DNA of 64,000 bases, taken from assembly GCA_016186145.1 (NCBI GenBank), contig JACPMF010000006.1:1906-65905 (forward strand), written 5' to 3'. Position 1 is the first letter of the stretch; each line of letters starts with the position of its first letter. The stretch is from Candidatus Sungiibacteriota bacterium (GTDB lineage: Bacteria > Patescibacteriota > Minisyncoccia > Sungbacterales > SURF-37). The notes under the pieces are model-generated. The model was not told where the DNA came from and did no database searches. It worked only from the letters and a program-made list of their open reading frames with translations. The position numbers and the translations under genes were made by a program. This document shows, one piece after another, positions 3,449 through 18,061 of the stretch.

Positions 3449-3588
3449 AAGCTCACGCGGACATATTCCAAAGACTCCGTCGCGGGCTTTTAACCAGAAA
3501 TACCGGTATTACGATGTGCGAGTTTGAAGACGGCCAATGGCGCATTCATACATGGAATGACCACGCGCATCTCGGATAAATCGATAAT

Positions 3589-3659
3589 TGGGGGATCGTC
3601 TAATGGTAGGACACTGCCCTTTGAAGGCAGGTATCGGGGTTCGAGTCCCTGTCCCCCAG
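3589..3659 (+). tRNA. tRNA-Gln (anticodon UUG)
   Basis: Full cloverleaf drawn by hand. Acceptor TGGGGGA/TCCCCCA, anticodon loop CTTTGAA, T-loop TTCGAGT. CCA is not encoded. Confidence 0.8.
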
Positions 3660-3730
3660 GATTAGAGGGAAGTATCGAGTGACCAGGACGGGTCGTAAAA
3701 GACCCCCCCTATGGCTGATGCTTTCCTTAG

Positions 3731-3803
3731 CTCGTCACCATCACGTCATACCGGCTGAGTGCCGTATCCAAAACGAAAGATCGCCTCCCAAGGCGGTTTT
3801 TCG
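3731..3803 (+). repeat. R1 repeat copy A (ctcgtcacca..gtcataccggctgagtgccgtat.caaaacgaaa plus terminator hairpin)
   Basis: Near-identical to 14911-14987. The hairpin CGCCT-CCCA-AGGCG is followed by a T-run. Confidence 0.8.
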
Positions 3804-3871
3804 TTAGAAATACCTTTAGTATACATATGTATACTTGACTTTTCTATTATAATAGATTATACTGCTTATAT

Positions 3872-6367
3872 ATGGCAATCAATAAAGCAGAATTTATTAC
3901 TGTGGCTGAAATGGCCAAAATGCTTGGGGTTACCCGAGCGGCAATAAACAAGCAAATTTCAGAGAAAAAGATCCCTGCTGAGAAGGTCGGGCGTAATTAC
4001 CTAATCCCCAAAACGGCCCTTCCGGCTGGGCTTGAGGAGCGTATTCGGACTGAGCAAAAGAAAGCCACCGATACGGTTATCAAGAAAAGCCATCATCACG
4101 ATCTCGATTTTGAGAAAGAACTGTGGGCGGCGGCAGACAAGCTTCGCGGCAATATTGATGTCTCCGAATACAAAAACATAGTCCTCGGACTCCTCTTCTT
4201 AAAATATATCTCTGACGCTTTTTACAAACGACGTGAAGAACTCGCGGGTTTTACTCGTGATTCGAAGAATGAGGATTTTTATGTGAAAGACGATAAGGCT
4301 CGCGCCCAAGTTCTTGAGACCAAAGATTTCTATAAGAGTGTTGGTGTGTTCTATGTACCAGAGAAATCTCGCTGGGAATATTTGCAGACAAAGACGATGC
4401 AGTCCGATATCGGGCAAGCGCTCGATAAGGCAATGGATCTTATCGAAGAGGACAACCGCGCCGAGCTTGAGGGGGTTCTCCCTAAAATTTATACTCGCAC
4501 AACCTTGGATCATGCTGTAATTGGCGAACTCGTAAATATATTTTCTCGCATTTCATTCAATCACGACTTTGACAGGGAGAAAGACATACTCGGCCGCATT
4601 TACGAATATTTCCTTGGTCAATTTGCTTCTTCTGAAGGCAAGCGTGGTGGTGAATTTTTTACTGCACGATCGATTGTTAATTTACTGGTAGAGATTCTTG
4701 AGCCATATGAAAATGCGCGGGTTCTTGATCCGGCCTGCGGAAGCGGCGGCATGTTTGTTTCTATGGGTGAATATCTGCGAAAACACGGGCAAGATCCATC
4801 GAAGCTTGCTGTCAATGGCCAAGAGAGTAACCAAACAACACTTCGTCTTGCAAAAATGAATCTCGCGATCCGTGGACTCTCTGGGAAAATTGAGCTTGGG
4901 AATAGTTATTACCAAGACAAGTTTCCCCACCTGCAAGCCGACTTCGTAATCGCCAATCCTCCGTTTAATGCAGAATGGGAACCGTCAAAACTTGCCGACA
5001 ACGATCCTCGCATGACACTAGGAGCCCCCCCAGGCAGTAACGCCAACTTTATGTGGATTCAACACTTCGCGCACCATTTAGCGCCAAATGGTCAGGCTGG
5101 GTTCGTTATGCCAAATGGAGCACTGGCAGTTTCTGGTAGAGAGGGTGATCTTCGTCAGAAATTGATCGAAGCGGATCTTGTCGACGCAATAATCACCTGC
5201 CCTTCAAAGCTTTTCTATAACGTCACTCTTCCAGTATCTCTCTGGTTCCTTTCGAAAAATAAATCCGGAGACCGTTTCCGTAGTCGCTCTGGCGAGATCC
5301 TATTTGTGGACGCTAGGGATACATTCGAGCAAATTTCTCGTAAGCAAGTTGTTTTCAACCCTACGCAAATCCAGAAAATTGCAAACACTGTTCGAGCATG
5401 GCGCGGAGAAAAGAGGTATGGCGAATACAAGGATGTCCCGGGTTTTTGTAAATCTGTTGATGTTAATAGAGTAAAAAAGAATCACTATATCTTGAGTCCA
5501 GAAAAATATGTTGATTCCGTTGTGATCCAGGGAGATGGGATATCATTCAAAAATGATCTTGAAAATACATCCAAGTTTTTAAAACAGCAGACAATAAAAT
5601 ATAAAGAGTTCGATCATAAAATATCCACCAGTCTAAATGAATTTTACCCGAGCTCTGATTGGAATAATATAAACTATTCATCGACAAGTGTTTTAGAAAG
5701 CCTAGCTTCTAAAATATTTGACGAGTGGTTTAATCGTTACCATATTCCTGGACGTAAAAAACTGAAGTTGGTTGAGCAGGATGATAAATTAATTCCGGAA
5801 GAATGGGGCGTAAAAAAGTTGGACGAAGTGGTGGATATTTCTATTGGACGAACTCCACCGAGGGAGCAGTATGAGTGGTTTTCTAGAAATGCAGAGGATA
5901 TAAAATGGATCTCCATAAAAGATCTCGGCACCAGTGGTGCATTTATACTTGACACCGAAGAGCGTCTAACAAGAGCAGCGGTTCAAAAATTTAATATTTC
6001 AATTATTCCAAAAAATACCGTTATCGTTAGTTTTAAACTCACGGTGGGACGTGTTGCGATTACGACGGAGAACATGTTGTCGAATGAGGCTATAGCGCAC
6101 CTGAAAACAAAAAAACAGCCACACATTCCATTCCAGTACCTCTATTTACTCATGAAAAAATATAATTATGCCTCTCTCGCTAGTACTTCTTCCATTGCAA
6201 ACGCCGTAAACTCAAAGACTATAAAAAATATTGAGATCGCAATTCCTGACCCTCAAACCCTGAGTCTTTTCGAGAAGATCATGACGCCTATCTTTGAAAA
6301 GATTTACGCGCTGCAGACAGAAGAAAGGGAGTTAAAAAAACTGAGGAATCAGCTATCGGTCAACTAA
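3872..6367 (+). CDS. hsdM: type I RM methyltransferase fused to a single-TRD specificity subunit, with an N-terminal HTH
   Basis: Excisionase-like HTH (AEMAKMLGVTRAAINKQI). HsdM N-domain, motif I LDPACGSGGMF and motif IV NPPFN. The C-terminal ~230 aa is an HsdS target-recognition domain. Confidence 0.85.
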   Translation: MAINKAEFITVAEMAKMLGVTRAAINKQISEKKIPAEKVGRNYLIPKTALPAGLEERIRTEQKKATDTVIKKSHHHDLDFEKELWAAADKLRGNIDVSEYKNIVLGLLFLKYISDAFYKRREELAGFTRDSKNEDFYVKDDKARAQVLETKDFYKSVGVFYVPEKSRWEYLQTKTMQSDIGQALDKAMDLIEEDNRAELEGVLPKIYTRTTLDHAVIGELVNIFSRISFNHDFDREKDILGRIYEYFLGQFASSEGKRGGEFFTARSIVNLLVEILEPYENARVLDPACGSGGMFVSMGEYLRKHGQDPSKLAVNGQESNQTTLRLAKMNLAIRGLSGKIELGNSYYQDKFPHLQADFVIANPPFNAEWEPSKLADNDPRMTLGAPPGSNANFMWIQHFAHHLAPNGQAGFVMPNGALAVSGREGDLRQKLIEADLVDAIITCPSKLFYNVTLPVSLWFLSKNKSGDRFRSRSGEILFVDARDTFEQISRKQVVFNPTQIQKIANTVRAWRGEKRYGEYKDVPGFCKSVDVNRVKKNHYILSPEKYVDSVVIQGDGISFKNDLENTSKFLKQQTIKYKEFDHKISTSLNEFYPSSDWNNINYSSTSVLESLASKIFDEWFNRYHIPGRKKLKLVEQDDKLIPEEWGVKKLDEVVDISIGRTPPREQYEWFSRNAEDIKWISIKDLGTSGAFILDTEERLTRAAVQKFNISIIPKNTVIVSFKLTVGRVAITTENMLSNEAIAHLKTKKQPHIPFQYLYLLMKKYNYASLASTSSIANAVNSKTIKNIEIAIPDPQTLSLFEKIMTPIFEKIYALQTEERELKKLRNQLSVN

Positions 6368-6371
6368 AATC

Positions 6372-9300
6372 ATGAACCCACTCAACGAAAATAATCTAAC
6401 AGAGCAATCACTCATTGAATGGCTTCAAGCTCAGGGTTATGAGTATGTTTATGGTCCAGCAATTGCTCCGGGACAACCTAGCGCAGAGCGTGAGGATTTT
6501 CGTGGTGTTGTACTTAAAAATCGTTTGCTTTCTGGTGTCCGTCGTTTCAATCCCCAGCTTCCAGCTGAACAAGCAGAACAAGTCGTGGATGATATCGCCG
6601 GATATCATAATGCTGACCTCGTTCTTGGCAACAAAGAAATGTTCACCCTCCTTACCGAGGGGGCGAAGAAGACGTGGCGAGAAAAGGGTGAGGAAAAGAC
6701 CGAAGTCGTGAAGTTGATTGACTTCACAAATGTGGACGCGAACGAATTCTTGATCGTCAACCAGTTTACAATCCAGGGTATCGAGAACGTTTGCCGCCTC
6801 GATGGCGTTGTTTTTGTAAACGGTCTTCCTCTTGGAGTCCTTGAACTCAAGAGTCCCGTACGTGAGGAAGCGACGATCGGTCAGGCGTACCGCGACATAG
6901 AATATTACAAAAGGGAAATACCGAGAATCTTCTTCTATAACCAAGTCCTTTGCTTATCTGACCTTACAGAAGCACGTCATGGAACGATATCTTCATCATG
7001 GGAGCGATATAGCGCGTGGAAAGGAATTGAATCAGAAACGGATGCACCTAAAGGAGCGGCGGAGCTTGAGGTTCTTGCTAGGGGTCTTTTTAACAAGGCG
7101 CGGCTTCTCGATGTAATTCAGAACTTTACGGTTTTTGAGGCCGACGGAGATGGTGACGCGGTGACGTACACAAAAAAATCTGCTTTGTACCATCAGTACT
7201 ACGGCGTAAATAAGACGATTCAAAGCACTGTGCATTCAGTGCTTGGAGAGCGGGAAAGAAAAATTGGTGTTTTCTGGCACACGCAGGGTTCGGGTAAGTC
7301 ACTCTCAATGGTTTTCTATGTGAATAAAACAAAGAGCATATCAGAGCTTAAAAGTCCCGCTTATGTATTTCTTAATGACCGCGAGGATCTCGACGACGCG
7401 CTATTTAAAACATTTAGTCGTACTGGGTATGGCACGCTCGCAAAACGCGCTTCGAGCATAAAAGATTTGAAAGATCGACTTTCCCACTTGGGAAGTGAAC
7501 TGATATTTACAACCATTCAGAAATTCCAAGAAGATCCTGACGCGAACGCCGTTCTCTCGGAAAGAGAAAATATTATTGTGCTTACTGATGAAGCACACCG
7601 CACGCAATACAGCATGCTTGCGGGTAATGTGCGACAGGCATTACCAAACGCGAGCTTTTTGGGCGTGACCGGAACTCCAATTTCACGGCATAATCGCAAC
7701 ACCATGCGTGTTTTTGGTGATGTAATAAGCGCATATAAGATTGGCCAGGCAGTAAAAGATAAAGCAACCGTCCCTATTTACTACGAGGGCCGTCTTGTTC
7801 CTCTCCATCTGGCTGATCAATTTGTTGATAGCAAACTCGACGAAATTCTTGGAGAAATTATCGTCGATGAAAAAGCAAAAGCCCGTAAAGAATGGGCCGT
7901 CCTTGAGGAGGTTGTAGGCGCGCCAAGCCGTATTGATCAAATATCAAAAGATATCGTTACTCATTTCAATAACCGTCCCATCGAGGGCAAAGCAATGGTA
8001 GTTACAATGAGTCGTCCTATCGCCGTCGCTATGTATCAAGCAATCAAAAAGATTTCCGGTACTCCAGAGTGCGCAGTGGTAATTTCCAAAATGGAGGACT
8101 TCCCGGGACAAATTCAAACTGAGCACGATGTGAAAAAACTCGAGAAGCGGTTTAAAAAGACGAATGACCCACTTCGTTTGGTTGTCGTCTGCGATATGTG
8201 GCTTACCGGATTTGATGTGCCGAGCATGCACACAATGTATCTCGATAAACCCCTTAAGAACCATGGGCTCATGCAAGCCATTGCTCGCGTGAACCGCGTC
8301 TACAAAGATAAGCCGGGTGGTTTAATTGTGGACTATATCGGTATTGCCGAACACTTAAAGAAAGCCTTGGCTATTTATGACTCTGATGTCCAAAAGGAAG
8401 CAATGATTCCTCTCGATGAAGTAATTAGTGAGATGAGAAAATTGCACGGAGAAATTTCTCGCTACTTTACGAATATCGACTTTTCTGGTTGGAGACAAAA
8501 GAAAGGCGTTGAACTGGTCAATCTCTTCCAGTCGGCAATGAATGAAGTTATCTCAGAGAATGGCCGGCTTTCTGATGATCGAAAAATGGCTTATATGGGT
8601 GGAGTTTCCAAACTTTCCCAGCTCCATGCCCTCGTCATGCCCGCAGAGGCGGCGATGAAGATTATAACCGATGTTCAATTCTTCCAGTCAATCCGCGAAG
8701 CAATCAACAAACAGACAGTGGTGCCGCATATTATCTTTCCCGAAGCAAAAGAGAGTGCCATCCGCAGCCTTATACAAGACGCGGTGCAAGCAGAAGGCGT
8801 AATTGACCTATTTACCAAAGAAGGCGAAGAGAAAAAAAGCATCTCCATCTTTGATAGTCGATTCGCAGAAGAAATAAAGAAGGTTAAATACCAAAATCTT
8901 GCCATTGATACGGTTCGCAAAATGCTTGATCAAGAAATAAAGGTACGCTCTCGTACAAACAAGGCGCGCTATGAAACGATGCTTACGCTTTTAACCGAAC
9001 TAATTGAGAAATACGAGAATAATGTTATTAGTTCGGCAGAGATCATTAAGCATCTACTCGAGATTGCCGACGAGATAAAGAAACTGGACGAAGAGAGCGA
9101 GGAACTCGGACTTTCCGAAGAGGAGATCGTCTTTTATGACACTCTTGCAGCCGATCCAGATCTCAAAGAAGCAGGGATTGATATCAAAGAATTCGTAAAG
9201 GAACTTACAAAACGTATTCGGCGCGACTTGGCTATTGATTGGACCAATAACGAAACTATCAAAGCGCGCATTCGCCAAAATGTTCGGTTGCTTTTGCTCC

Positions 9301-9401
9301 AGAAGGGCTTCGTCGAGCAGATGCAAACAGAACGACTAATAGAGTCGATATATCAGGAGACGGTGAGGGTGTACCGGGAATACTTACCAGTACCAGCGTA
9401 A
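6372..9401 (+). CDS. hsdR: type I restriction enzyme R subunit
   Basis: Walker A TQGSGKS and DEAH box LTDEAH. Length 1009 aa. Starts 5 nt after hsdM-S. Confidence 0.9.
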   Translation: MNPLNENNLTEQSLIEWLQAQGYEYVYGPAIAPGQPSAEREDFRGVVLKNRLLSGVRRFNPQLPAEQAEQVVDDIAGYHNADLVLGNKEMFTLLTEGAKKTWREKGEEKTEVVKLIDFTNVDANEFLIVNQFTIQGIENVCRLDGVVFVNGLPLGVLELKSPVREEATIGQAYRDIEYYKREIPRIFFYNQVLCLSDLTEARHGTISSSWERYSAWKGIESETDAPKGAAELEVLARGLFNKARLLDVIQNFTVFEADGDGDAVTYTKKSALYHQYYGVNKTIQSTVHSVLGERERKIGVFWHTQGSGKSLSMVFYVNKTKSISELKSPAYVFLNDREDLDDALFKTFSRTGYGTLAKRASSIKDLKDRLSHLGSELIFTTIQKFQEDPDANAVLSERENIIVLTDEAHRTQYSMLAGNVRQALPNASFLGVTGTPISRHNRNTMRVFGDVISAYKIGQAVKDKATVPIYYEGRLVPLHLADQFVDSKLDEILGEIIVDEKAKARKEWAVLEEVVGAPSRIDQISKDIVTHFNNRPIEGKAMVVTMSRPIAVAMYQAIKKISGTPECAVVISKMEDFPGQIQTEHDVKKLEKRFKKTNDPLRLVVVCDMWLTGFDVPSMHTMYLDKPLKNHGLMQAIARVNRVYKDKPGGLIVDYIGIAEHLKKALAIYDSDVQKEAMIPLDEVISEMRKLHGEISRYFTNIDFSGWRQKKGVELVNLFQSAMNEVISENGRLSDDRKMAYMGGVSKLSQLHALVMPAEAAMKIITDVQFFQSIREAINKQTVVPHIIFPEAKESAIRSLIQDAVQAEGVIDLFTKEGEEKKSISIFDSRFAEEIKKVKYQNLAIDTVRKMLDQEIKVRSRTNKARYETMLTLLTELIEKYENNVISSAEIIKHLLEIADEIKKLDEESEELGLSEEEIVFYDTLAADPDLKEAGIDIKEFVKELTKRIRRDLAIDWTNNETIKARIRQNVRLLLLQKGFVEQMQTERLIESIYQETVRVYREYLPVPA

Positions 9402-9405
9402 TTTT

Positions 9406-11961
9406 ATGGACAGTCGTATACCATTTGTAAAAGAAGTCGCCAAGGTCATCATTGAACGCCATGAAAAAGAGGGCGGCTCCTTTATTTTTGGTATATCCGG
9501 CAAGTGGGGTGAGGGTAAAACAACTTTTCTGGACGAATTGAAAAAAGTATTGGAAAAAGATAATTCATCATTCAAAGTTGTGGATATAAATCCATGGAAA
9601 TTTTCCGTCGACAGAATTTCTTTTTTGAGAAACTTCCTGCGAACTTTGCACGGAAAATGTGATTTGGGGGGTGACGATGATTTAAAACAGTTAGATGTTG
9701 ATACGTCAAAAAATGCAATCGATTGGGGACGATTTTTAAAATTTGTCGTATTGTTTGGAGTCATTTGTTGGGCTTTTACTTATGCCCCTCTTTTTAATTT
9801 TATAATTGGCCTTCCTGCGCAATGGCAATTTTTTCTAACCGTTTTGTTGCTCCCAATTGTCTTAGCAGCCGTTCAAGGCGTAGTAACTGTCCAAAAGACA
9901 GATCACGCTATAGTTACTTTAGACAAATTTGATGATCTACTTAAAAAAATATTAAAGAATTTTGAGATGGCGGGAAAGAAGATCATTGTTTTTGTCGATG
10001 ATTTGGACCGTGTAACTCCCGAAATGGCGAGAGATGTTCTCGATAATCTGCGGACGTTCTTTGATAAAAAAGAAATGACCTTCGTCGTAACAGGAGACCA
10101 TACAGTACTCGAAGGACATCTCGGGAGAAGTCTTCTTCCCGACGAAGAATCTTCTGCTGCTCAGCTAGAAGAAGGACGTAGATTTATGAAGAAAATCTTT
10201 AATGTTTATTGGCGACTTCCACTCCCAATCAAAAAGGGGATCCAAGACTTTATTGGAGGTGAGTTCAAAAAGAGGGACTCAGGGTTGAAAGAAGTGTTCT
10301 CTGAAGAGAGCCAGAAAATTACCTTCGCTACATATCTGGAGAAATATTTTGAAAGTAATTTCAGGCAAATAATCAGATTTTTAGACACTGTTCTTTTTAA
10401 TTTTCAAATCATAAAACAAAAAGCTGAAGGCGAAGACACACAAGCTCCTTACTTCAAGGATATGCTGACCAATCCGCTGCTTGTGATACGTATTCTTATA
10501 ATCCAAGAGTTGTGCGCCCCTCTTTTCGACAAAATGGTTAGAGATGTTTCCATTTTGCAGGGGCTTGAATACGCAGTCGAGAAAAAGGATTCTTCTAAAA
10601 CAACTGAGATCCTAGGACAAGGCAAGGATACGCTTTCTCCTAGTCAACGAGCTTTTATAGAAAAGTTTATTTATGAGGAACCACGTTTTTACAAAGGATC
10701 TCGCCTACAGGTCTTAAACCTTCAGCCCTATCTATCGTTAGCTGCTGACGTAAGCTTCGGCGATCAGCGTGGTCCGTCCAGCGAAGACTTTATTACGGCA
10801 CTTAACGGAGGAGATCCCAAGGGAGTAAAAAATGATCTCCTTTCAATGGGAGATGCAAAAGCAGAGGAGGGCGCAACTGCTTTGGTAACCCAGCTACCCC
10901 CCATGATTGATGTTACTCAAAAATTGGGCGCAATAAAAACACTTCTTGTCGCCTTGTCTGATTCACCCACCGAATTAACCATACATAAAATATTTGCTGA
11001 TCAATTAAGCAAGCTTGATTACCATTTTGTAAATAATGCTGCGTCTAATCTAAAAATGGAAGTTTTAAACCTTCTCTTTGGTTGGCTCGACCTGATTTCA
11101 GACCCCACTGTGATAAGTGCGTTTGAAAGTAAATTTACTCTGAAGGATATTACTGAATTTAATGCTGTAAATATTGAAGGAGCAGGTTCTTTCAAAAGTT
11201 TGGTTTTGGCGAAATGGATTAAGGAGTATTACTCTAAGCAAAAACCCGATGCCATAAACGCTATGGTTGCACACTTTCCAAAACTAAAAATTGAGAAAGT
11301 GAGGGAGCAAATGGATACTATTGATAAAATCTTGGTTACTGACCTTATTGGAGACTCCAACGCACTGTTAAGGGAGAACCGCTTTGCTTTGTTGAGAAAC
11401 TATACAACTAAAGGGGCTGAGATGCTCAAAGAAAATGTTCTGAACCAAGTTTCTGGTTTTGATCAAGGAATTACTGCGTGGGCTATCGCAAAAGCAAATG
11501 AGGAAAAAGCTCTGTGGACGATAGGTGAGCTTGAGACAAAAATCCTAGAAAAAATTGAGATTTCGGCGGACTTCAATGCCCTTAATCAGGGATTAAGGTT
11601 TGCTTTAACCAATAAAGTTGGATCCCCAGAGATGATTTGGCCCAAGCTTCTTCCTAAACACCAGAAAAGTATTCTTGAAAATTTACCAGCAATTATTGAT
11701 GACGCTTCACTTCAACCGATTTCACCACCACAAGCTTATGCAAATCAACTTATGGATGCAGTAGTAGCAAAAATTAAGACCATTCCGGAGGCTGACCAAG
11801 CCCGCTGGCTTAGTTATATAGTTAAAGGTAAATGGCCTTGGATTAATCTGGCTAAATACCCTATTACCAGTAAGTTTAGAAATATGAAGAAGTCTAAAAA
11901 CGAAGATCTTAAGAAGAATTTTGCAATTACTGAAGAAAGCTGGGTAGAGAAAAATGATTGA
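9406..11961 (+). CDS. KAP-family P-loop NTPase
   Basis: Walker A GKWGEGKTT and Walker B IIVFVDDLDR. Two TM helices inserted between them are the KAP hallmark. Starts 4 nt after hsdR. Confidence 0.8.
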   Translation: MDSRIPFVKEVAKVIIERHEKEGGSFIFGISGKWGEGKTTFLDELKKVLEKDNSSFKVVDINPWKFSVDRISFLRNFLRTLHGKCDLGGDDDLKQLDVDTSKNAIDWGRFLKFVVLFGVICWAFTYAPLFNFIIGLPAQWQFFLTVLLLPIVLAAVQGVVTVQKTDHAIVTLDKFDDLLKKILKNFEMAGKKIIVFVDDLDRVTPEMARDVLDNLRTFFDKKEMTFVVTGDHTVLEGHLGRSLLPDEESSAAQLEEGRRFMKKIFNVYWRLPLPIKKGIQDFIGGEFKKRDSGLKEVFSEESQKITFATYLEKYFESNFRQIIRFLDTVLFNFQIIKQKAEGEDTQAPYFKDMLTNPLLVIRILIIQELCAPLFDKMVRDVSILQGLEYAVEKKDSSKTTEILGQGKDTLSPSQRAFIEKFIYEEPRFYKGSRLQVLNLQPYLSLAADVSFGDQRGPSSEDFITALNGGDPKGVKNDLLSMGDAKAEEGATALVTQLPPMIDVTQKLGAIKTLLVALSDSPTELTIHKIFADQLSKLDYHFVNNAASNLKMEVLNLLFGWLDLISDPTVISAFESKFTLKDITEFNAVNIEGAGSFKSLVLAKWIKEYYSKQKPDAINAMVAHFPKLKIEKVREQMDTIDKILVTDLIGDSNALLRENRFALLRNYTTKGAEMLKENVLNQVSGFDQGITAWAIAKANEEKALWTIGELETKILEKIEISADFNALNQGLRFALTNKVGSPEMIWPKLLPKHQKSILENLPAIIDDASLQPISPPQAYANQLMDAVVAKIKTIPEADQARWLSYIVKGKWPWINLAKYPITSKFRNMKKSKNEDLKKNFAITEESWVEKND

Positions 11962-12084: not shown

Positions 12085-13488
12085 ATGTTTACGAGTGAGA
12101 ATTTTAAAAAAGTTGCTGATCTTGTCTATAAAGATTACTACAAATATCTCTTTAAGCACGCCGTATCTTTATTGCGACGTTCGAGACTTCCGTATCTTAG
12201 AAGGAATAATCTTTGGATAGGTGGAATTCAGCAAAACATGGTTAAATATAGACTCGGATTTGAAGAAACGGTCAGAAAGGGTAAGTCGATGGTCCCAAAA
12301 GACGACAAGGAGAAAAAAGCATTAGATATTGCACTGAGATCAAATAAAGAATTCCTCCGTGTCTTGAAGGATATTGGTGATGGTATTGCCTGGAGAAATC
12401 TAGACTATAGACGCTCATTAATTCGACTTATGTCGGAACATGCACCGACTGGCGATATTGGTCCGGATGCAGAGCGACTTATTTTGCTTTTAGGCGCTAG
12501 GAAAAAAGTAAGCGACCGAGTGATAATCAACGATTTGACCCACTGTCTAAAGATCGCCGATTTAACAGTTATCACATCAAAAAGTAGAATCTTTATTTAT
12601 GAAGTAAAGGCGCGAAAAGATAAGACCGAGATTATAGGTATATCAGAAATTTCAAGACGTATCCAAAAATATGGACAGGCAAGAAAGCAGGCTATTTCGC
12701 ACTGGATAGTTCAAGACGCTTTTATAAATAAAAAAGTTAAGACCCCCAAACTTGAAATAAGAATCGTAGATTTAGACTTTGTTTTTCACACTCACATCAG
12801 TAAGGTAAATCAATTGATTAAAGAGTCGGATAACAAGAACTTCTCCAACGCATTATTGGAAGGGGGATACCACATAGAAATTTGTGCGTTGGACAAGGTT
12901 TTTGAGAAATCAGGTCAGGAAAAAATTAAGGAACAATTGAATAAACTCAAGCCCTTTAATCCCCATAAAGAAGGGTGGTCCGATATGACACTTTGCATCT
13001 CAAACTATGATACCTTTTATTCGAGCATCAACGACAGATTTACGAATTTTACGCCGTATTCGGTTCTACCATTATCTGCTCGAAACTGCGTTAGGTTAAC
13101 GATGGGGCAACTTTATATTCGTATCTGCTTCGATTTTATGAAGTTAAAACAGAAATTCGAAGAAGCTGGATGGAGTGTCGAGGTTAAAGACTGGACATCA
13201 TGGGAATCTCAAAACAAGGAAACCATCAGAAAAATTAGGGAGGGTAAGGGTGGTTTCTTAGAGCATTCAGTTAATGAGTATATATTCAAAATTTCTAAAC
13301 AAGGCGAGAACGGTAGGTATACCCAGGATTTTCCGGTAAATCTAGTGATCATTATGCTCTCGGCTTTTTATACAACGGACTATCTCATTGGTATGGCCGA
13401 GGCTGTTTATCAAGATGCAAAATTAAACAGCCGAGGTGGTGGTTTATCAACGTTTAATTGTCTATATGAACGATGTATTTTAAGATGA
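12085..13488 (+). CDS. hypothetical protein with a PD-(D/E)XK-like nuclease motif
   Basis: 467 aa with low GC. LKIADLTVITSKSRIFIYEVKARKD fits the D...ExK core. Confidence 0.5.
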   Translation: MFTSENFKKVADLVYKDYYKYLFKHAVSLLRRSRLPYLRRNNLWIGGIQQNMVKYRLGFEETVRKGKSMVPKDDKEKKALDIALRSNKEFLRVLKDIGDGIAWRNLDYRRSLIRLMSEHAPTGDIGPDAERLILLLGARKKVSDRVIINDLTHCLKIADLTVITSKSRIFIYEVKARKDKTEIIGISEISRRIQKYGQARKQAISHWIVQDAFINKKVKTPKLEIRIVDLDFVFHTHISKVNQLIKESDNKNFSNALLEGGYHIEICALDKVFEKSGQEKIKEQLNKLKPFNPHKEGWSDMTLCISNYDTFYSSINDRFTNFTPYSVLPLSARNCVRLTMGQLYIRICFDFMKLKQKFEEAGWSVEVKDWTSWESQNKETIRKIREGKGGFLEHSVNEYIFKISKQGENGRYTQDFPVNLVIIMLSAFYTTDYLIGMAEAVYQDAKLNSRGGGLSTFNCLYERCILR

Positions 13489-13581
13489 TCCCTGCTCGCG
13501 GCGAACGCTGGTCCTATTCAGAATCAGAGGATTCGACAGCCGGCTGGCGTAGAGCATTGAACTGTAATTGAATAAAATCAT

Positions 13582-14235
13582 ATGCTAGACGCTGAAACAT
13601 TCAAAAAGTTTACAAGGCAAGCCAACCTTTCTCATCAGCAGTTTTGTGTTTGGTTCGCATTTAACAATGAGTATGCCAAACACCAGGATCGTTGGAACAA
13701 ATTTTATCCCGAAAGTTACTTTGCACCGGAAGATTTTGATAAGACGAAAGGATGTAAGTATAAAAACTTCTGGGGTGTAACTTTGGCCTCAACGCAGCAC
13801 GGCTGGATTCTGGGAATAGCAAGACTCTTTGATCCCGCATTTCATCCTTTTGATAAAAAACAGGAAAAACCTCGAATCTCTTTCGACTATATTCTTAGAA
13901 GACTTAATGATCAAAACTTGTCAGATAAACTGAGGCAAGAGTTAGATTGGCACAAAAATGTAATTGAATCTGTAAGAAAACATAGGGATAATGTTCTTGC
14001 GCATAACGATGCGAGCTTTGATTATAAAAAAATTGGGCCAGGAATTGAAAATCTTTTTGAATGGTTAGAAGATGTTATTTCAAGAATAAAAAAAACAGAG
14101 CCACACCTTAGTAGTTGTGGTGTAGTGAACGTTAAGTATCACGAGAAATTATCCCAATGTGGCGTAGATGAGGTTTTTGAAACTTTACTGCTTGGGGAAA
14201 AGCATGAGGTAGATGAGTCGAGGAGAACCTCATAA
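13582..14235 (+). CDS. hypothetical HEPN-like (Abi-type) protein
   Basis: 217 aa. RKHRDNVLAH fits the Rx4-6H HEPN motif (AbiD/F-like R..RN..AH). Confidence 0.4.
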   Translation: MLDAETFKKFTRQANLSHQQFCVWFAFNNEYAKHQDRWNKFYPESYFAPEDFDKTKGCKYKNFWGVTLASTQHGWILGIARLFDPAFHPFDKKQEKPRISFDYILRRLNDQNLSDKLRQELDWHKNVIESVRKHRDNVLAHNDASFDYKKIGPGIENLFEWLEDVISRIKKTEPHLSSCGVVNVKYHEKLSQCGVDEVFETLLLGEKHEVDESRRTS

Positions 14236-14250
14236 AAGCGATGATCATAT

Positions 14251-14655
14251 ATGTTTCCACTGGAAACTAAATCTTACGAAGCAAAATCGCTAGCCGACTC
14301 TTTGCTTGGCAATCCGTATCTCCAAGTTGAGTCCGCAGAACTCCCCGAGAGCGGAGGAGTTTATTTGTTCAGAAATGATGCAAATGAAATAGTATATATA
14401 GGCAAGGCGCGAAATCTAAAGAGAAGAATCCGCATTGACCACTTAAGCCAGGAACTGGGCGATACTATGAGTGCTTTTAGAAGAAGCATTAATAAGGTGC
14501 TTGGAATTCCTTTCGGCCATGAGATGAAAAGCTGGATATGCAGCAATTGCAAAATTTCTTTCATCCAGATAGATGATCCAGATATGCGCAGTTTGGTGGA
14601 GGCGCTTTTAATCGCTGCCGTCAGATCGAAGTCATTGCTCAATCATGATAGTTAG
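14251..14655 (+). CDS. GIY-YIG nuclease domain protein
   Basis: GVYLFRNDANEIVYIGKARNLKRRI. Lies 16 nt downstream of the HEPN-like gene. Confidence 0.7.
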   Translation: MFPLETKSYEAKSLADSLLGNPYLQVESAELPESGGVYLFRNDANEIVYIGKARNLKRRIRIDHLSQELGDTMSAFRRSINKVLGIPFGHEMKSWICSNCKISFIQIDDPDMRSLVEALLIAAVRSKSLLNHDS

Positions 14656-14674
14656 TGTTCACGGCATATGAAAT

Positions 14675-14709
14675 GAGACACACATAGTAGTGTCTCATTT
14701 GTCTCATTT
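14675..14709 (+). terminator. rho-independent terminator
   Basis: Hairpin GAGACAC-8 nt-GTGTCTC followed by ATTTGTCTCATTT. Confidence 0.6.
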
Positions 14710-14910
14710 AGGTTAAAATGACCTAGACCGAGACCCTTCACTATAGAGAAGGGAAGGATCTCCAAAGAAGCTCTAAGGTATCCCACTCGGGTTGGTTCTA
14801 GACTGGAGTGGCCAGCCACCTTGCGACCCCTACCGGGACGCCTGCCTGCCGGCAGGCAGGGGTCAGGCGTCGTAACGCTTGACTCGTCAATGTACGAAAT
14901 TTGGTCGCAA

Positions 14911-14987
14911 GACTCGTCACCATTTATGGCATACCGGCTGAGTGCCGTATTCAAGAACGAAAAACCACCAATGTCGGTGGTTTTTCG
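14911..14987 (+). repeat. R1 repeat copy B with terminator hairpin
   Basis: gactcgtcaccat..ggcataccggctgagtgccgtattcaagaacgaaa, then CCACC-AATGTC-GGTGG and a T-run. Confidence 0.8.
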
Positions 14988-15056
14988 TTTTGTACAAAAT
15001 AAACATGTTTTGATTCCGATATTTATTTTTCTGAGCTTATAAATTAGATTTAGTCT

Positions 15057-15953
15057 TTATTGGATTCCCATGGGGTTGCCAAATACCGGTACAAAGTTGG
15101 TTGGTTCTACTATGTTTCCTGTTTCCATTCCAATCGCTCGCATATCCGAAGAGTTCTCGATGCCGATGGCTATTCCATTCTCAGTACTATATGTATTGGC
15201 ATTTGGGTCTATATCAGCCTTAATCATCAATGTCTTGCTTAATCTCTCCGGTGTAACGAGCAGGAAATCCAAGCTAATCACGGCTTTGCCGTCTAAGAAA
15301 CTGCTCGCTGTTCCGATTCGGGTGCTGCCGTCAAAAATCTGAATGTTGAGAAGGTCGGCATCTGTCCCGCCGTTTCTTGTCAGCGTCAGTTGCTGGATTC
15401 CTACATTTTCGTTTCCAGCAGTAAAAGTAATCGCGCTAAAGTTATTCCATGCACTCCCGCGCTCATAGTAGGCAGACGGAGGTGTATTTGGAGAAAGCGC
15501 GACCGTAAGCGGTGCGGGAGTTTTTGGTTGAAGCGTTCCATGTACTTCCGTGTAGGCGATAACCATGCCGTTAGAATTTTTTGCCTCAACGCGAACCGTG
15601 AGCGGCACTTCGGTTTTGCTCCTCAAAACATTGGCGTCAAGAACGATGCCGAACCCGTATTTGCCCGCAGGGCGCAAGGACGGAAAAACTTGTTCCACAC
15701 CCTGCGATATTTGTTTGCTGTCAGTTGATGCGGAGACGATAAGTTGGCCGCCCAGTTTCAGGATGGGGCCGTCCCAAAACCCTTTAGCAATAGTGCCGCC
15801 GATAGGAAGCGTGTCTTGCTCTCCGGTAATTACGAATCCTTCAGAAAGCGAGGAAATCATTATTGGCCCGCCTGCCGCGCCCGTAAAAAGAGGTAGTAGC
15901 GAGATACCAATGATTATTGCGAATGATGTTTTCATATAAGTATATTGTAGCAT
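15057..15953 (-). CDS. secreted hypothetical protein
   Basis: 298 aa with an N-terminal signal peptide (SFAIIIGISLLPLFTGAAGG). Confidence 0.6.
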   Translation of the reverse strand: MLQYTYMKTSFAIIIGISLLPLFTGAAGGPIMISSLSEGFVITGEQDTLPIGGTIAKGFWDGPILKLGGQLIVSASTDSKQISQGVEQVFPSLRPAGKYGFGIVLDANVLRSKTEVPLTVRVEAKNSNGMVIAYTEVHGTLQPKTPAPLTVALSPNTPPSAYYERGSAWNNFSAITFTAGNENVGIQQLTLTRNGGTDADLLNIQIFDGSTRIGTASSFLDGKAVISLDFLLVTPERLSKTLMIKADIDPNANTYSTENGIAIGIENSSDMRAIGMETGNIVEPTNFVPVFGNPMGIQ

Positions 15954-15964
15954 ATTGAAAGGTT

Positions 15965-18061
15965 TTACTCTATTGTCAGCGGAACGGTTATTTGTCTCCC
16001 GTCTCTTAAGAGCAGACCAATAAAATATTCTCCGGAGGATATACTTTCTGGTATGAAAACGCCATTTATATGTGGTTCACAACTTGTTTTAAAAAAATAA
16101 TTAAGATTGTTTAAAGAAATTGTCATATTTAACACTATATCATCGAATCCCAAGGTGTTATCTCGAGAAAGTATTAATGCGGCGACTTCATCCTGTTGGA
16201 ACCCCGCGCTTGCACTTTGAAACCTTAAAAACCCTCCTTTTGCAACACTGTTGACACACAGTTTAAATTCCTTTACGACCACATTAGAAGGTTGATGCGC
16301 AGGCTGAAAAAGTATTTCCACCGCATCCGCTCGTGTTTTGAACTTTTTAATTTTTTTTAATAAATCATTTTTAGGTATGATTACAGGATCGTCATCGAGA
16401 TTGATCCATTGGTTGGATAATAACCTTGCGAGGGTTTCGATAGTAATATTTTCGTCTGATATTTCTGTGTGCGAAAATTTTGTCATGCCGCGGTCGTCTC
16501 TTTTTTCATGATTGACCACTTCGCTACGCCTCTCATTTTCTTCTTTAGTTAAACAAATAACTCCGAAAAGATAATGATTTGGAATTTGCTCATCGTGAAT
16601 TAAGTTGAAACTCGTATGATTACCTCTCACGCTAGAAAAACTCGGCTCGGGTAAATAGTCAAAAGTACTCCCATAGCTATTTATGTTGAAGTGAGAACAA
16701 AAATTGCTAACGTATAGCGCGTTATCTATGTCCCATTTTATTTCAGTAGTCGACGGGAAAGAAGATACCATGATGGGGCCATCGTTTCCGTTAGCCTTGA
16801 CCCCAACATAAGGATTGATAGGAGCACAAACATCCTGTGGTACGGCCACCTTCACGCCATCAGAAACTATTGTATGACTAGAAAAATCTCGCGCGTTATA
16901 ATGCTCTACCTTTAGAACGTATTCGTATGTTTTCCCAGTAACAATTGTTCCATCGCCGTATTCGGTTCCGTTCATTGAAGACAGACTGTGTATTTCTTTG
17001 CCATCTCGATATATAGTCTGGGACGCAATCAAATCGCCAGCCGGAATTGAGTCCAAATTCCACTCTAAGATAACAGTGGGAACAGCTCCTGTATTATCAG
17101 CTCCACGGTCACAATATGTTTTATAACGAAGATTTACCGTCTTTCCTTGCACCGCAATTGAAGATAGCTGTTGAGTTGCGGGTGGTTGTTGGTTTTTTTG
17201 CGGTTGTTCGTCTTCTTTTTGTTTTGTTTCTGTAGCTGGCCTTGTTACAATTTGAGTACTTTCCTTAGCAATTTCATGATGTTCCAACTCATTTGCTATA
17301 AGTTTTGCAATCTCCTCCGGAGCGGAGACACCAGTTTTTACTAATTTGTTCAACTCAACAAGACCAAACGCAAGTTTTGTTGCGGAAACTTTAAGGCCGA
17401 CTTCTTCGGAAATGGCTTCGGCAACTTTGCTGACAATCACATCTTTTGCCGCGTTTCTATCTGCGGTGGAAACGCTTTTGAATTGCGAGTCAAGCCAGTA
17501 ATTTAAGAGCATACTTTCAGCCCCCATCAAGGTGCTACCGAACTTTCCTCCAGCGGCCTTTCCCGCAAGCCCCGGAATACTTGCAGACAATTTTCCGATT
17601 TCATGCTCAATCTCTTGAGCTTTCTCTATGTTTCGGCTCCATACCTCCAACGCCGCGGAATCATAGAGATGCCAAAGGCGCTGGTAGGAAGTACTTCGTT
17701 CAATGTGCTCGTTGGCTATATCGGTATTACCGCTTATAAGAAACTTTTCGGCAATGCCGAGTTCCTGCAAAGCGTAATTTTTATAAGCGTGCGCGGAAAG
17801 ATAAAGTTCATTGTATTCGTCTAAGTGCGGCTGGCGTATTCCGAGAACAAACCATTTGCGCACGTTATTTAAAAACCCATCTGCTGGTTCAATGATTAAA
17901 TTAGGCGAGTCCGGCGTCTCAAGAATTATTTTTCTTGATTGCGAGATAACATTTTTGAGGTCCGGCATCTCGATGGCATTCGCTTGAGAAAAACTAAAGA
18001 TGAACCAGCCAGATATGACCAGCATTGTTGAAATTACAAATATGATTGGGTGTCTTTCCAT
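15965..18061 (-). CDS. large secreted or membrane-anchored hypothetical protein
   Basis: 698 aa. N-terminal TM/signal segment and a Q/P-rich linker. The segment around TVNLRYKTYCDRG..TYEYVLKVEHYN is a beta-sandwich, possibly fibronectin type III-like. Confidence 0.6.
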   Translation of the reverse strand: MERHPIIFVISTMLVISGWFIFSFSQANAIEMPDLKNVISQSRKIILETPDSPNLIIEPADGFLNNVRKWFVLGIRQPHLDEYNELYLSAHAYKNYALQELGIAEKFLISGNTDIANEHIERSTSYQRLWHLYDSAALEVWSRNIEKAQEIEHEIGKLSASIPGLAGKAAGGKFGSTLMGAESMLLNYWLDSQFKSVSTADRNAAKDVIVSKVAEAISEEVGLKVSATKLAFGLVELNKLVKTGVSAPEEIAKLIANELEHHEIAKESTQIVTRPATETKQKEDEQPQKNQQPPATQQLSSIAVQGKTVNLRYKTYCDRGADNTGAVPTVILEWNLDSIPAGDLIASQTIYRDGKEIHSLSSMNGTEYGDGTIVTGKTYEYVLKVEHYNARDFSSHTIVSDGVKVAVPQDVCAPINPYVGVKANGNDGPIMVSSFPSTTEIKWDIDNALYVSNFCSHFNINSYGSTFDYLPEPSFSSVRGNHTSFNLIHDEQIPNHYLFGVICLTKEENERRSEVVNHEKRDDRGMTKFSHTEISDENITIETLARLLSNQWINLDDDPVIIPKNDLLKKIKKFKTRADAVEILFQPAHQPSNVVVKEFKLCVNSVAKGGFLRFQSASAGFQQDEVAALILSRDNTLGFDDIVLNMTISLNNLNYFFKTSCEPHINGVFIPESISSGEYFIGLLLRDGRQITVPLTIE

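Follow-up and report, generated by a model that had tools for sequence, protein, structure and literature searches.

Does the run of three nuclease-like genes at positions 12085-14655 of a Candidatus Sungbacteria (Patescibacteria) genome fragment constitute a single defence module, or have genes of separate origin come to lie side by side? The fragment, a stretch of 64,000 nucleotides (nt) that is referred to as the window throughout, contains at this site three open reading frames (ORFs) on the + strand, which encode proteins of 467, 217 and 134 amino acids (aa) and which an earlier sequence-only reading had interpreted as possibly an undescribed abortive-infection (Abi) or toxin module, or as two separate ones. 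The comparison of related loci presented here suggests that each of the three genes is an independently mobile unit of its own and that their adjacency is coincidental, an interpretation that we regard as probable. It is likewise rather likely that the trio forms the distal end of a low-GC, repeat-bracketed defence island of ~11 kb that is anchored by restriction-modification (R-M) genes.

The coordinates, strand and lengths of the three ORFs were all verified. The gene for the 467-aa protein (12085-13488, + strand), which is known from the ORF list and from its homologues, is followed after 93 nt by the gene for the 217-aa protein (13582-14235, + strand), a predicted RNase of the HEPN_AbiU2 family (Pfam PF18734) with a conserved motif. 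After a further 15 nt (14236-14250; 16 nt had been given previously) follows the gene for the 134-aa protein (14251-14655, + strand), a minimal GIY-YIG nuclease that is recognised by Pfam PF20815 and PF01541, by sequence matches to PDB entries and by its catalytic residues. Each of them has conserved homologues (the 467-aa protein 10 close relatives and 878 cluster representatives, the 217-aa protein 44 homologues and the 134-aa protein seven), which identifies them as genes rather than ORFs that arose by chance. Since the arrangement was recovered in four separate sequencing runs, it does not reflect an assembly chimera. With a GC content of 0.377 and 0.376, respectively, the 467-aa and HEPN genes are indeed the lowest in the window (mean 0.455), as had been noted for the entire trio; the GIY-YIG gene (0.427) is not. 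The KAP gene located upstream (0.391) is part of the same trough.

The three genes do not recur together

Loci encoding relatives of the three proteins were compared, comprising 16 loci of the 467-aa family, 36 HEPN loci (L009-L044) and six GIY-YIG loci, four of which are independent (L005-L008, L055, L056). Employing tblastn and profile hidden Markov models (HMMs), two or more genes of the trio were found together solely in re-assemblies of the same organism (L059-L062). In none of the 16, 36 and six loci was the respective gene accompanied by another of the three, and no GIY-YIG gene was observed in any of the 23 HEPN loci for which at least 450 bp of downstream sequence is available.

The closest relatives of the three genes are located on separate contigs and have other neighbours, as seen for the 467-aa gene in L001 (76% protein identity), the HEPN gene in L009 (87%) and the GIY-YIG gene in L055 (80%), where the latter stands after an unrelated ORF. 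The neighbours of the 76%-identical 467-aa homologues are quite different from those in the window. Moreover, the nucleotide similarity to each closest relative begins and ends at the ends of the respective ORF. Because independent co-occurrence is lacking and the DNA similarity is limited to the ORFs, a three-gene as well as a two-gene module was rejected. The notion of one undescribed module is contradicted by the fact that the pairing never recurs outside this organism (16, 36 and four independent loci, respectively). As regards two separate undescribed modules, the comparison favours three separate genes, with the 467-aa gene as the sole undescribed one. The sequence motifs on which the initial assignments were based proved to be conserved among the homologues of all three proteins.

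The 467-aa protein represents a large undescribed family

A word-indexed search with the 467-aa protein returned only 10 relatives. When 1.84 billion cluster representatives (50% identity) were searched with a profile, 878 clusters emerged at an E-value of 1e-3 or below, 116 of them at 1e-30 or below. Nearly all of these proteins have a length of 440-480 aa and align end to end. No match to the 467-aa protein was found in Pfam, NCBIfam, PADLOC or PHROGs, and 48 diverse members of the family likewise gave no match to Pfam or PADLOC, except for one spurious N-terminal Vsr fragment; the PADLOC scans admitted E-values up to 1 for the 467-aa protein and up to 0.01 for the 47 other members. The 467-aa protein is a member of a large, widespread and undescribed family, and it is the sole undescribed one in the trio. 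The Vsr match, present in member P0086, comprises 36 residues at the N-terminus that probably derive from a neighbouring gene, and it says nothing about the core. In addition, member P0005 (L058:3841-5754) contains an N-terminal extension of ~170 residues with a nucleotidyltransferase-like appearance and no significant Pfam match. Both the P0005 extension and the P0086 fragment are possible fusions or gene-calling run-ons.

The alignment used to assess conservation comprises 112 members with 16-75% identity. Residues D99, D159, K175, Q202 and P324 are invariant, and E173, which is conserved in at least 90% of the members, ranks among the nearly invariant positions together with Q49, I97, G100, W103, R104, R110, T152, P329, G341, G362 and W363. 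The D...E-V-K motif that had been read from the window sequence is present in IADLTVITSKSRIFIYEVKARK (residues 157-178, codons at 12553-12618, + strand) and is the top conserved feature across the 112 members. Here, D159 (12559-12561) is followed after 13 residues by E173-x-K175 (12601-12603 and 12607-12609, respectively; all + strand), a spacing found in the family. The N-terminal region of the protein (~1-137) is helical and contains the invariant D99 in the sequence I-x-DGIAWR. D159, E173-x-K175 and Q202 belong to a beta-rich core (145-230), behind which the C-terminal region (238-467) is of the alpha/beta type.

Structure prediction with AlphaFold2 (AF2) from an alignment of 10 sequences yielded a predicted local distance difference test score (pLDDT) of 57.1; the 112-sequence alignment was used instead and gave a model with a pLDDT of 92.9 and a predicted template modelling score (pTM) of 0.93. 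The model contains a helix (128-137), three strands (145-148, 160-163 and 169-176), helices (186-215) and a further strand (224-230). D159 is located immediately before strand 160-163, E173 and K175 lie within strand 169-176, Q202 opens a helix and D99 is placed inside a long helix. The order of strands and helices and the placement of D and ExK fit the canonical PD-(D/E)XK core at the level of secondary structure. A Foldseek search with the model revealed no neighbour in the PDB or BFVD at an E-value of 1e-3 or better, and NERD (PF08378) scored 12.4 bits against the protein, below the cut-off of 22.1. A profile of the core region gave sub-threshold PDB matches to VRR-NUC (4qbn, E 0.64) and NucS (2vld, E 0.83), and in these alignments the D and ExK residues fall on the catalytic motif. 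The full-length profile matched centrin in the PDB, which was discarded as spurious.

The PD-(D/E)XK assignment agrees with the D-ExK motif shared across the family and with the order of the predicted strands, and no significant profile or fold match was obtained for it. The profile and structure checks foreseen for the trio resulted in a confident AF2 model that has no PDB or BFVD neighbour for this protein and in Pfam assignments for the HEPN and GIY-YIG proteins. Judging from sequence and model, the 467-aa protein most likely works like a PD-(D/E)XK nuclease; its membership of the superfamily is unproven. Common to both are an Asp at the start of a strand and an E-x-K in the next strand, as predicted by the model, followed in the 467-aa protein by a helix with an invariant Gln and preceded by the invariant helix residue D99. 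Unlike known PD-(D/E)XK nucleases, the protein gives no significant match, its model as a whole has no solved neighbour, and ~370 of the 467 residues, which lie outside the putative core, have no assignable domain.

The protein would be a metal-dependent nuclease, in which the PD-(D/E)XK-like residues D159/E173-x-K175 together with D99 from the helix and Q202 form the active site. The catalytic centre may be situated between the helical part at the N-terminus and the alpha/beta part at the C-terminus, the latter with a sensing or regulatory role, and the protein could act on its own as a restriction-like or abortive-infection effector.

Distribution and neighbourhoods of the 467-aa family

Outside this organism, 16 loci of the family were studied, 13 of which are independent (L001-L004, L045-L054, L057, L058). 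The hosts belong to the Patescibacteria, Chloroflexota, Gammaproteobacteria, Ignavibacteriales and Actinomycetota. A scan of a collection of genomes from 185,579 species gave no match with alignment A1, and with alignment A8 it revealed eight loci that fit the search pattern, a number that represents a lower bound. No match was obtained by tblastn of phages and plasmids with the 467-aa protein of the window; the same search with two distant family members matched solely genes annotated as 'hypothetical protein' on Streptomyces plasmids. Relatives of the family were absent from viral contigs, and no phage-encoded copies were found.

In the window, the gene is accompanied by type I R-M genes and a KAP gene. 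Elsewhere, a GmrSD_N-HNH gene is located directly upstream (L046), or, as in L052, the family gene lies 4 nt behind that of an MmeI-family R-M enzyme, with a McrB-like ATPase encoded downstream of it. A large serine recombinase gene adjoins the family member in L045 (6747-8075) and L049 (8417-9748), the latter with HsdM-like genes nearby, and fragments homologous to this recombinase lie beside it in L047 (5219-6761). In L004 (4693-6030) and L058 (2098-3429), genes for a ParB_N-N6_N4 methyltransferase and terminase-like genes stand beside it, and the neighbourhoods also contain a diversity-generating retroelement (DGR) reverse transcriptase and RadC. This suggests that the family is carried on integrative or prophage-like elements at these five loci. 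On Streptomyces plasmids (pSV2 and others), the members annotated as 'hypothetical protein' lie beside insertion sequence (IS) elements, a tyrosine recombinase gene and a gene for a TIGR02391 protein. The family is patchily distributed and keeps company with mobile elements and defence genes, a pattern that favours an accessory role in conflicts without being proof of one. As a tentative proposal, which may well turn out to be incorrect, the 467-aa protein would be the founding member of an undescribed family that spans phyla and in which single genes encode effectors against phages or plasmids, with a PD-(D/E)XK-like centre (D99, D159, E173-x-K175, Q202) in an architecture that has no solved relative.

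Two further loci deserve mention. In L057 (1-8398), the 76%-identical family gene begins 6 nt after a closely spaced run of genes on the same strand. A type III Res-like helicase is encoded first in this run, and proteins of 180, 986, 185 and 360 aa come after it; the latter four have neither a Pfam match on record nor a PADLOC match, and the run may represent an undescribed multi-gene system. In Streptomyces violaceoruber plasmid pSV2 (L053, 77341-79415), the family member overlaps convergently with a gene of the TIGR02391 family, which we take to be Ymh. Ymh is listed as a HEPN family (PMC3710099). If TIGR02391 is Ymh, a member of the 467-aa family would adjoin a HEPN gene on pSV2 as well, although this HEPN gene is of another family and oriented the other way.

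The 217-aa protein belongs to the AbiU2 family of HEPN proteins

The HEPN_AbiU2 profile (PF18734) matches residues 62-147 of the 217-aa protein with 31.5 bits (cut-off 26.8), spanning profile positions 40-139 of 193, and the same assignment is precomputed for most of its 44 homologues. The motif RDNVLAH (R135-D-N-V-L-A-H141, residues 135-141) is encoded at 13984-14004 (+ strand). Among 26 HEPN homologues, R135, A140 and H141 do not vary and N137 hardly does, and the R-x5-H arrangement fits the Rx4-6H motif. No solved structure is related to the protein by sequence. The HEPN call and its motif were thus confirmed; the statement that the gene matches no familiar named system was wrong, as it belongs to the AbiU2 family (PMC3710099). 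AbiU2 is one of six HEPN families derived from lactococcal Abi proteins, and its context is given as 'R-M operons' (PMC3710099). The 217-aa protein shares with HEPN_AbiU2/AbiUii of L. lactis a score above the Pfam cut-off, the R135-x5-H141 motif and a position adjoining an R-M operon. Unlike lactococcal AbiU2, of which it is a distant relative, it occurs in a Patescibacteria host and an AbiUi-like partner was not detected, with the likeness of the 467-aa protein to AbiUi being judged by gene order and PADLOC models only. A plasmid search for lactococcal AbiU with the HEPN protein of the window gave no usable match. As proposed for HEPN Abi proteins, the 217-aa protein may be an RNase that employs R135 and H141 and would cut RNA upon infection.

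An upstream non-coding RNA antitoxin, as in AbiF or type III toxin-antitoxin systems, was considered and rejected. The 93-nt spacer in front of the HEPN gene folds no better than shuffled sequences (z -0.56) and contains no tandem repeats, and the upstream DNA is not conserved with that of the 87%-identical homologue. The spacer upstream of the 467-aa gene likewise folds no better than shuffled sequence.

The neighbourhoods of the HEPN homologues vary. The 87%-identical gene in L009 is a solitary one, with a LAGLIDADG-like gene on one side and creD on the other, the 63%-identical gene in L010 is found between recA and a HinP1I R-M pair, and in many loci just 2-33 nt separate the HEPN gene from the gene ahead of it, which varies. 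A gene for a trypsin-like peptidase (Trypsin_2, 370-420 aa) ends 2-8 nt ahead of the AbiU2-type HEPN gene in 11 HEPN loci out of 36 (L016, e.g., at 678-2781, L018, L019, L020, L021, L024, L026, L027, L029, L034 and L043). A gene for a 73-aa protein of the helix-turn-helix (HTH) family HTH_3 lies upstream in five loci (L016, L018, L019, L021, L023), in four of them immediately before the peptidase gene. The HTH, protease and HEPN genes form a recurrent operon, the HEPN protein of which is not flagged by PADLOC models.

The 134-aa protein is a minimal GIY-YIG nuclease

Two Pfam models match the 134-aa protein above their cut-offs, namely PF20815 (31.4 bits, cut-off 22.4) and PF01541 (30.7 bits, cut-off 22.6). 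The NCBIfam matches are to the N-termini of UvrC and Cho, and among PDB sequences the protein matches UvrC (1yd6, E 1.9e-6) and T4 endonuclease II (EndoII; 2wsh, E 1.9e-4). Weak PHROG and NCBIfam matches to homing and intron endonucleases were obtained as well. In the seven homologues Y38 (in GVY), Y49-x-G51-K52, R58/R59, E117 and N131 are invariant. In agreement with the original call of a minimal GIY-YIG nuclease, the catalytic residues are intact, and by its sequence the protein comprises a complete minimal GIY-YIG catalytic domain and no additional module.

The protein shares the GIY...YIG hairpin and the Arg, Glu and Asn residues with the N-terminal domain of UvrC and with T4 EndoII, and the latter, a chain of 143 residues (2wsh), is likewise a catalytic domain that has no appended DNA-binding module. 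Unlike both, the 134-aa protein is encoded by a stand-alone gene in a putative defence island, being neither part of UvrC nor phage-encoded, and it contains an invariant clade-specific insert, DHLSxE..D.MS.FRRS. It represents a small clade of the known GIY-YIG superfamily, and it may be a DNA endonuclease of the UvrC-N/T4 EndoII type that nicks or cuts DNA. Relatives of the clade were absent from viral contigs.

The clade genes (window, 14251-14655; L005:6001-6408; L008:6001-6399; L055:108-512; L056:146-592) always begin within 41 nt downstream of a different gene on the same strand, with a 4-nt overlap in L056. The preceding genes encode the HEPN protein in the window, a PIN-like protein of 186 aa in L005, a GmrSD_N-like protein of 428 aa in L008 and two unassigned proteins in the other loci. 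The clade gives the impression of a promiscuous rider at the tail end of defence-type genes.

Alternative explanations for the trio

Several points weigh against the interpretation of the trio as three independently mobile genes with a role in defence, a role that, like their enzymatic activities, we infer. A search with defence-system HMMs, recommended at the outset, brought no PADLOC match for any of the three proteins. No terminator-like site was found in the gaps between the three genes, and for this reason they may be co-transcribed and to some extent functionally coupled in this organism. The defence role of the AbiU2-type HEPN family is unproven, because lactococcal AbiU2 is dispensable for AbiU resistance (PMC13064643) and, on its own, non-toxic in E. 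coli (PMC3985639). Finally, four loci of the 467-aa family (L001, L048, L050, L051) lack recognisable defence neighbours.

One alternative is that the 467-aa protein and the AbiU2-type HEPN protein constitute an AbiU-like two-gene system, with the former as effector, as AbiUi, and the latter as modulator, as AbiUii. Lactococcal AbiU consists of the nuclease-like AbiUi followed by the HEPN protein AbiUii (AbiU2); AbiUi by itself protects, and the addition of AbiUii lowers the protection (PMC13064643). The window shows the same order, by which the two systems are likened: a gene for a D-ExK protein stands 93 nt ahead of an AbiU2-type HEPN gene on the same strand, with no terminator-like site in the gap, and the short distance between HEPN genes and a variable upstream gene in many loci would be in line with such a partnership. 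Unlike in lactococcal AbiU, the pairing is not conserved for either gene of the window, as an AbiU2-like HEPN gene was found in 0 of 16 loci of the 467-aa family and a gene of the 467-aa family in 0 of 36 HEPN loci. PADLOC models, among them any that cover AbiU, match neither the 467-aa protein nor the 47 other members, and the DNA homology to the closest relatives stops at each ORF. An AbiU-like pair thus appears unlikely.

Alternatively, the 134-aa GIY-YIG protein could be a selfish rider similar to a free-standing homing endonuclease, inserted behind genes of variable regions and devoid of a defence role. The different, closely spaced upstream neighbour on the same strand in each of five independent contexts would be compatible with this idea, as would the weak matches to homing and intron endonucleases. 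I-TevI-type enzymes carry a DNA-binding or targeting domain. The 134-aa protein has none, no relatives of it were found in viral contigs, and the flanking DNA shows no homology that would delimit an insertion unit, which renders a selfish element improbable.

It is also very improbable that the three genes serve housekeeping functions in DNA repair or RNA processing, for instance nicking by an enzyme that resembles UvrC and recombination by a nuclease, and merely lie beside the R-M genes. The 134-aa protein is indeed nearest to the N-termini of UvrC and Cho, and one HEPN homologue is located right after recA (L010). Nevertheless, the distribution is patchy, cross-phylum and rare (at the lower bound eight loci among the genomes of 185,579 species), the genes reside in a low-GC, repeat-bracketed island, and the neighbours, comprising R-M genes, recombinases, IS elements and plasmids, differ at every locus.

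A two-gene toxin/antitoxin or effector/partner module of the HEPN and GIY-YIG genes, suggested by their spacing of 15 nt and by the constant position of the GIY-YIG clade closely behind a gene that, where identifiable, is nuclease- or toxin-like (PIN-like in L005, GmrSD_N-like in L008), is very unlikely, as the GIY-YIG gene is absent from 23 of 23 informative HEPN loci, a HEPN gene is found in 0 of the four independent GIY-YIG loci including the 80%-identical L055, the upstream ORF of which ends differently, the 87%-identical HEPN gene in L009 stands alone, and the intact catalytic residues fit an enzyme rather than an antitoxin.

The putative defence island surrounding the trio

Three independently mobile genes remain the interpretation that we favour, and their surroundings show the company in which they are found. 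Six genes on the same strand follow each other in the order HsdM/S, HsdR, KAP NTPase, 467-aa protein, AbiU2-type HEPN and GIY-YIG. By profile matches (Pfam, PADLOC and NCBIfam), the first three were assigned as an HTH-HsdM-HsdS fusion of a type I R-M system (3872-6367, + strand), HsdR (6372-9401, + strand) and a KAP-family P-loop NTPase, PifA/QatA-like (9406-11961, + strand). The methylase is a single polypeptide of 831 aa with an N-terminal HTH_17, HsdM_N, N6_Mtase and one Methylase_S domain; a separate hsdS gene is absent, the specificity domain being placed inside the fusion. The KAP NTPase gene, encoding 851 aa, begins 4 nt past the stop codon of HsdR and appears to be embedded in the R-M operon; the C-terminal ~520 residues of the protein have no assigned domain. 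Downstream, 16 nt past the stop codon of the GIY-YIG gene, a hairpin with an 11-bp stem and a T-rich tail (14671-14700, + strand) likely serves as the terminator of the gene run.

The island has a GC content of 0.417 as compared to 0.463 in the remainder of the window, and on either side of it stands one copy of an imperfect direct repeat (~80 nt). The left copy (3728-3806, + strand) and the right copy (14911-14992, + strand) each end in a terminator hairpin and share an exact 21-mer (3747-3767 and 14930-14950, respectively), which occurs nowhere else in the window and in 0 of 100 shuffles. The bracketing of the island by this repeat is beyond chance expectation. A tRNA-Gln gene (3588-3660) ends 68 nt before the left copy. 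There is no integrase or recombinase among the six island genes, and a search for an empty site via the flanking 298-aa protein found none.

The repeats are part of two paralogous, strongly structured RNA-like elements around the island (3665-3808 and 14790-14995), with minimum free energy (MFE) z-scores of -4.8 and -5.9. Apart from the shared ~80 nt including the exact 21-mer, the stems of their long terminator hairpins differ by compensatory changes. An Rfam search with both elements revealed nothing above chance, and they could be small-RNA genes or recombination sites of the island. Immediately beyond the island, two ORFs on the - strand (15057-15953 and 15965-18061) encode proteins of 298 and 698 aa with N-terminal hydrophobic segments; both lack a Pfam match and may be secreted or surface proteins.

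The make-up of the island corresponds to that of R-M-based defence islands with embedded Abi, KAP or HEPN genes (PMC3632139; PMC3710099), with which it shares the combination of R-M, KAP NTPase, HEPN and nuclease genes in one low-GC, same-strand block near a tRNA gene. Unlike such islands, the block contains no integrase, and it is bracketed by paralogous structured elements instead of a duplicated tRNA 3′-end.

Implications

The HEPN and GIY-YIG proteins of this locus are of known families, and its novelty rests on the 467-aa family, which comprises 878 clusters (50% identity), has relatives in none of Pfam, NCBIfam, PADLOC and the PDB, and offers both a sharply conserved motif of acidic residues and lysine and a confident structural model. 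The locus shows single defence-type genes moving one by one into an R-M-anchored island. As the defence repertoire of the Patescibacteria is poorly known, it bears on the turnover of defence genes in this phylum. If the role proposed for the 467-aa family is true, it would add a further stand-alone nuclease defence gene, even in the reduced genomes of Patescibacteria.

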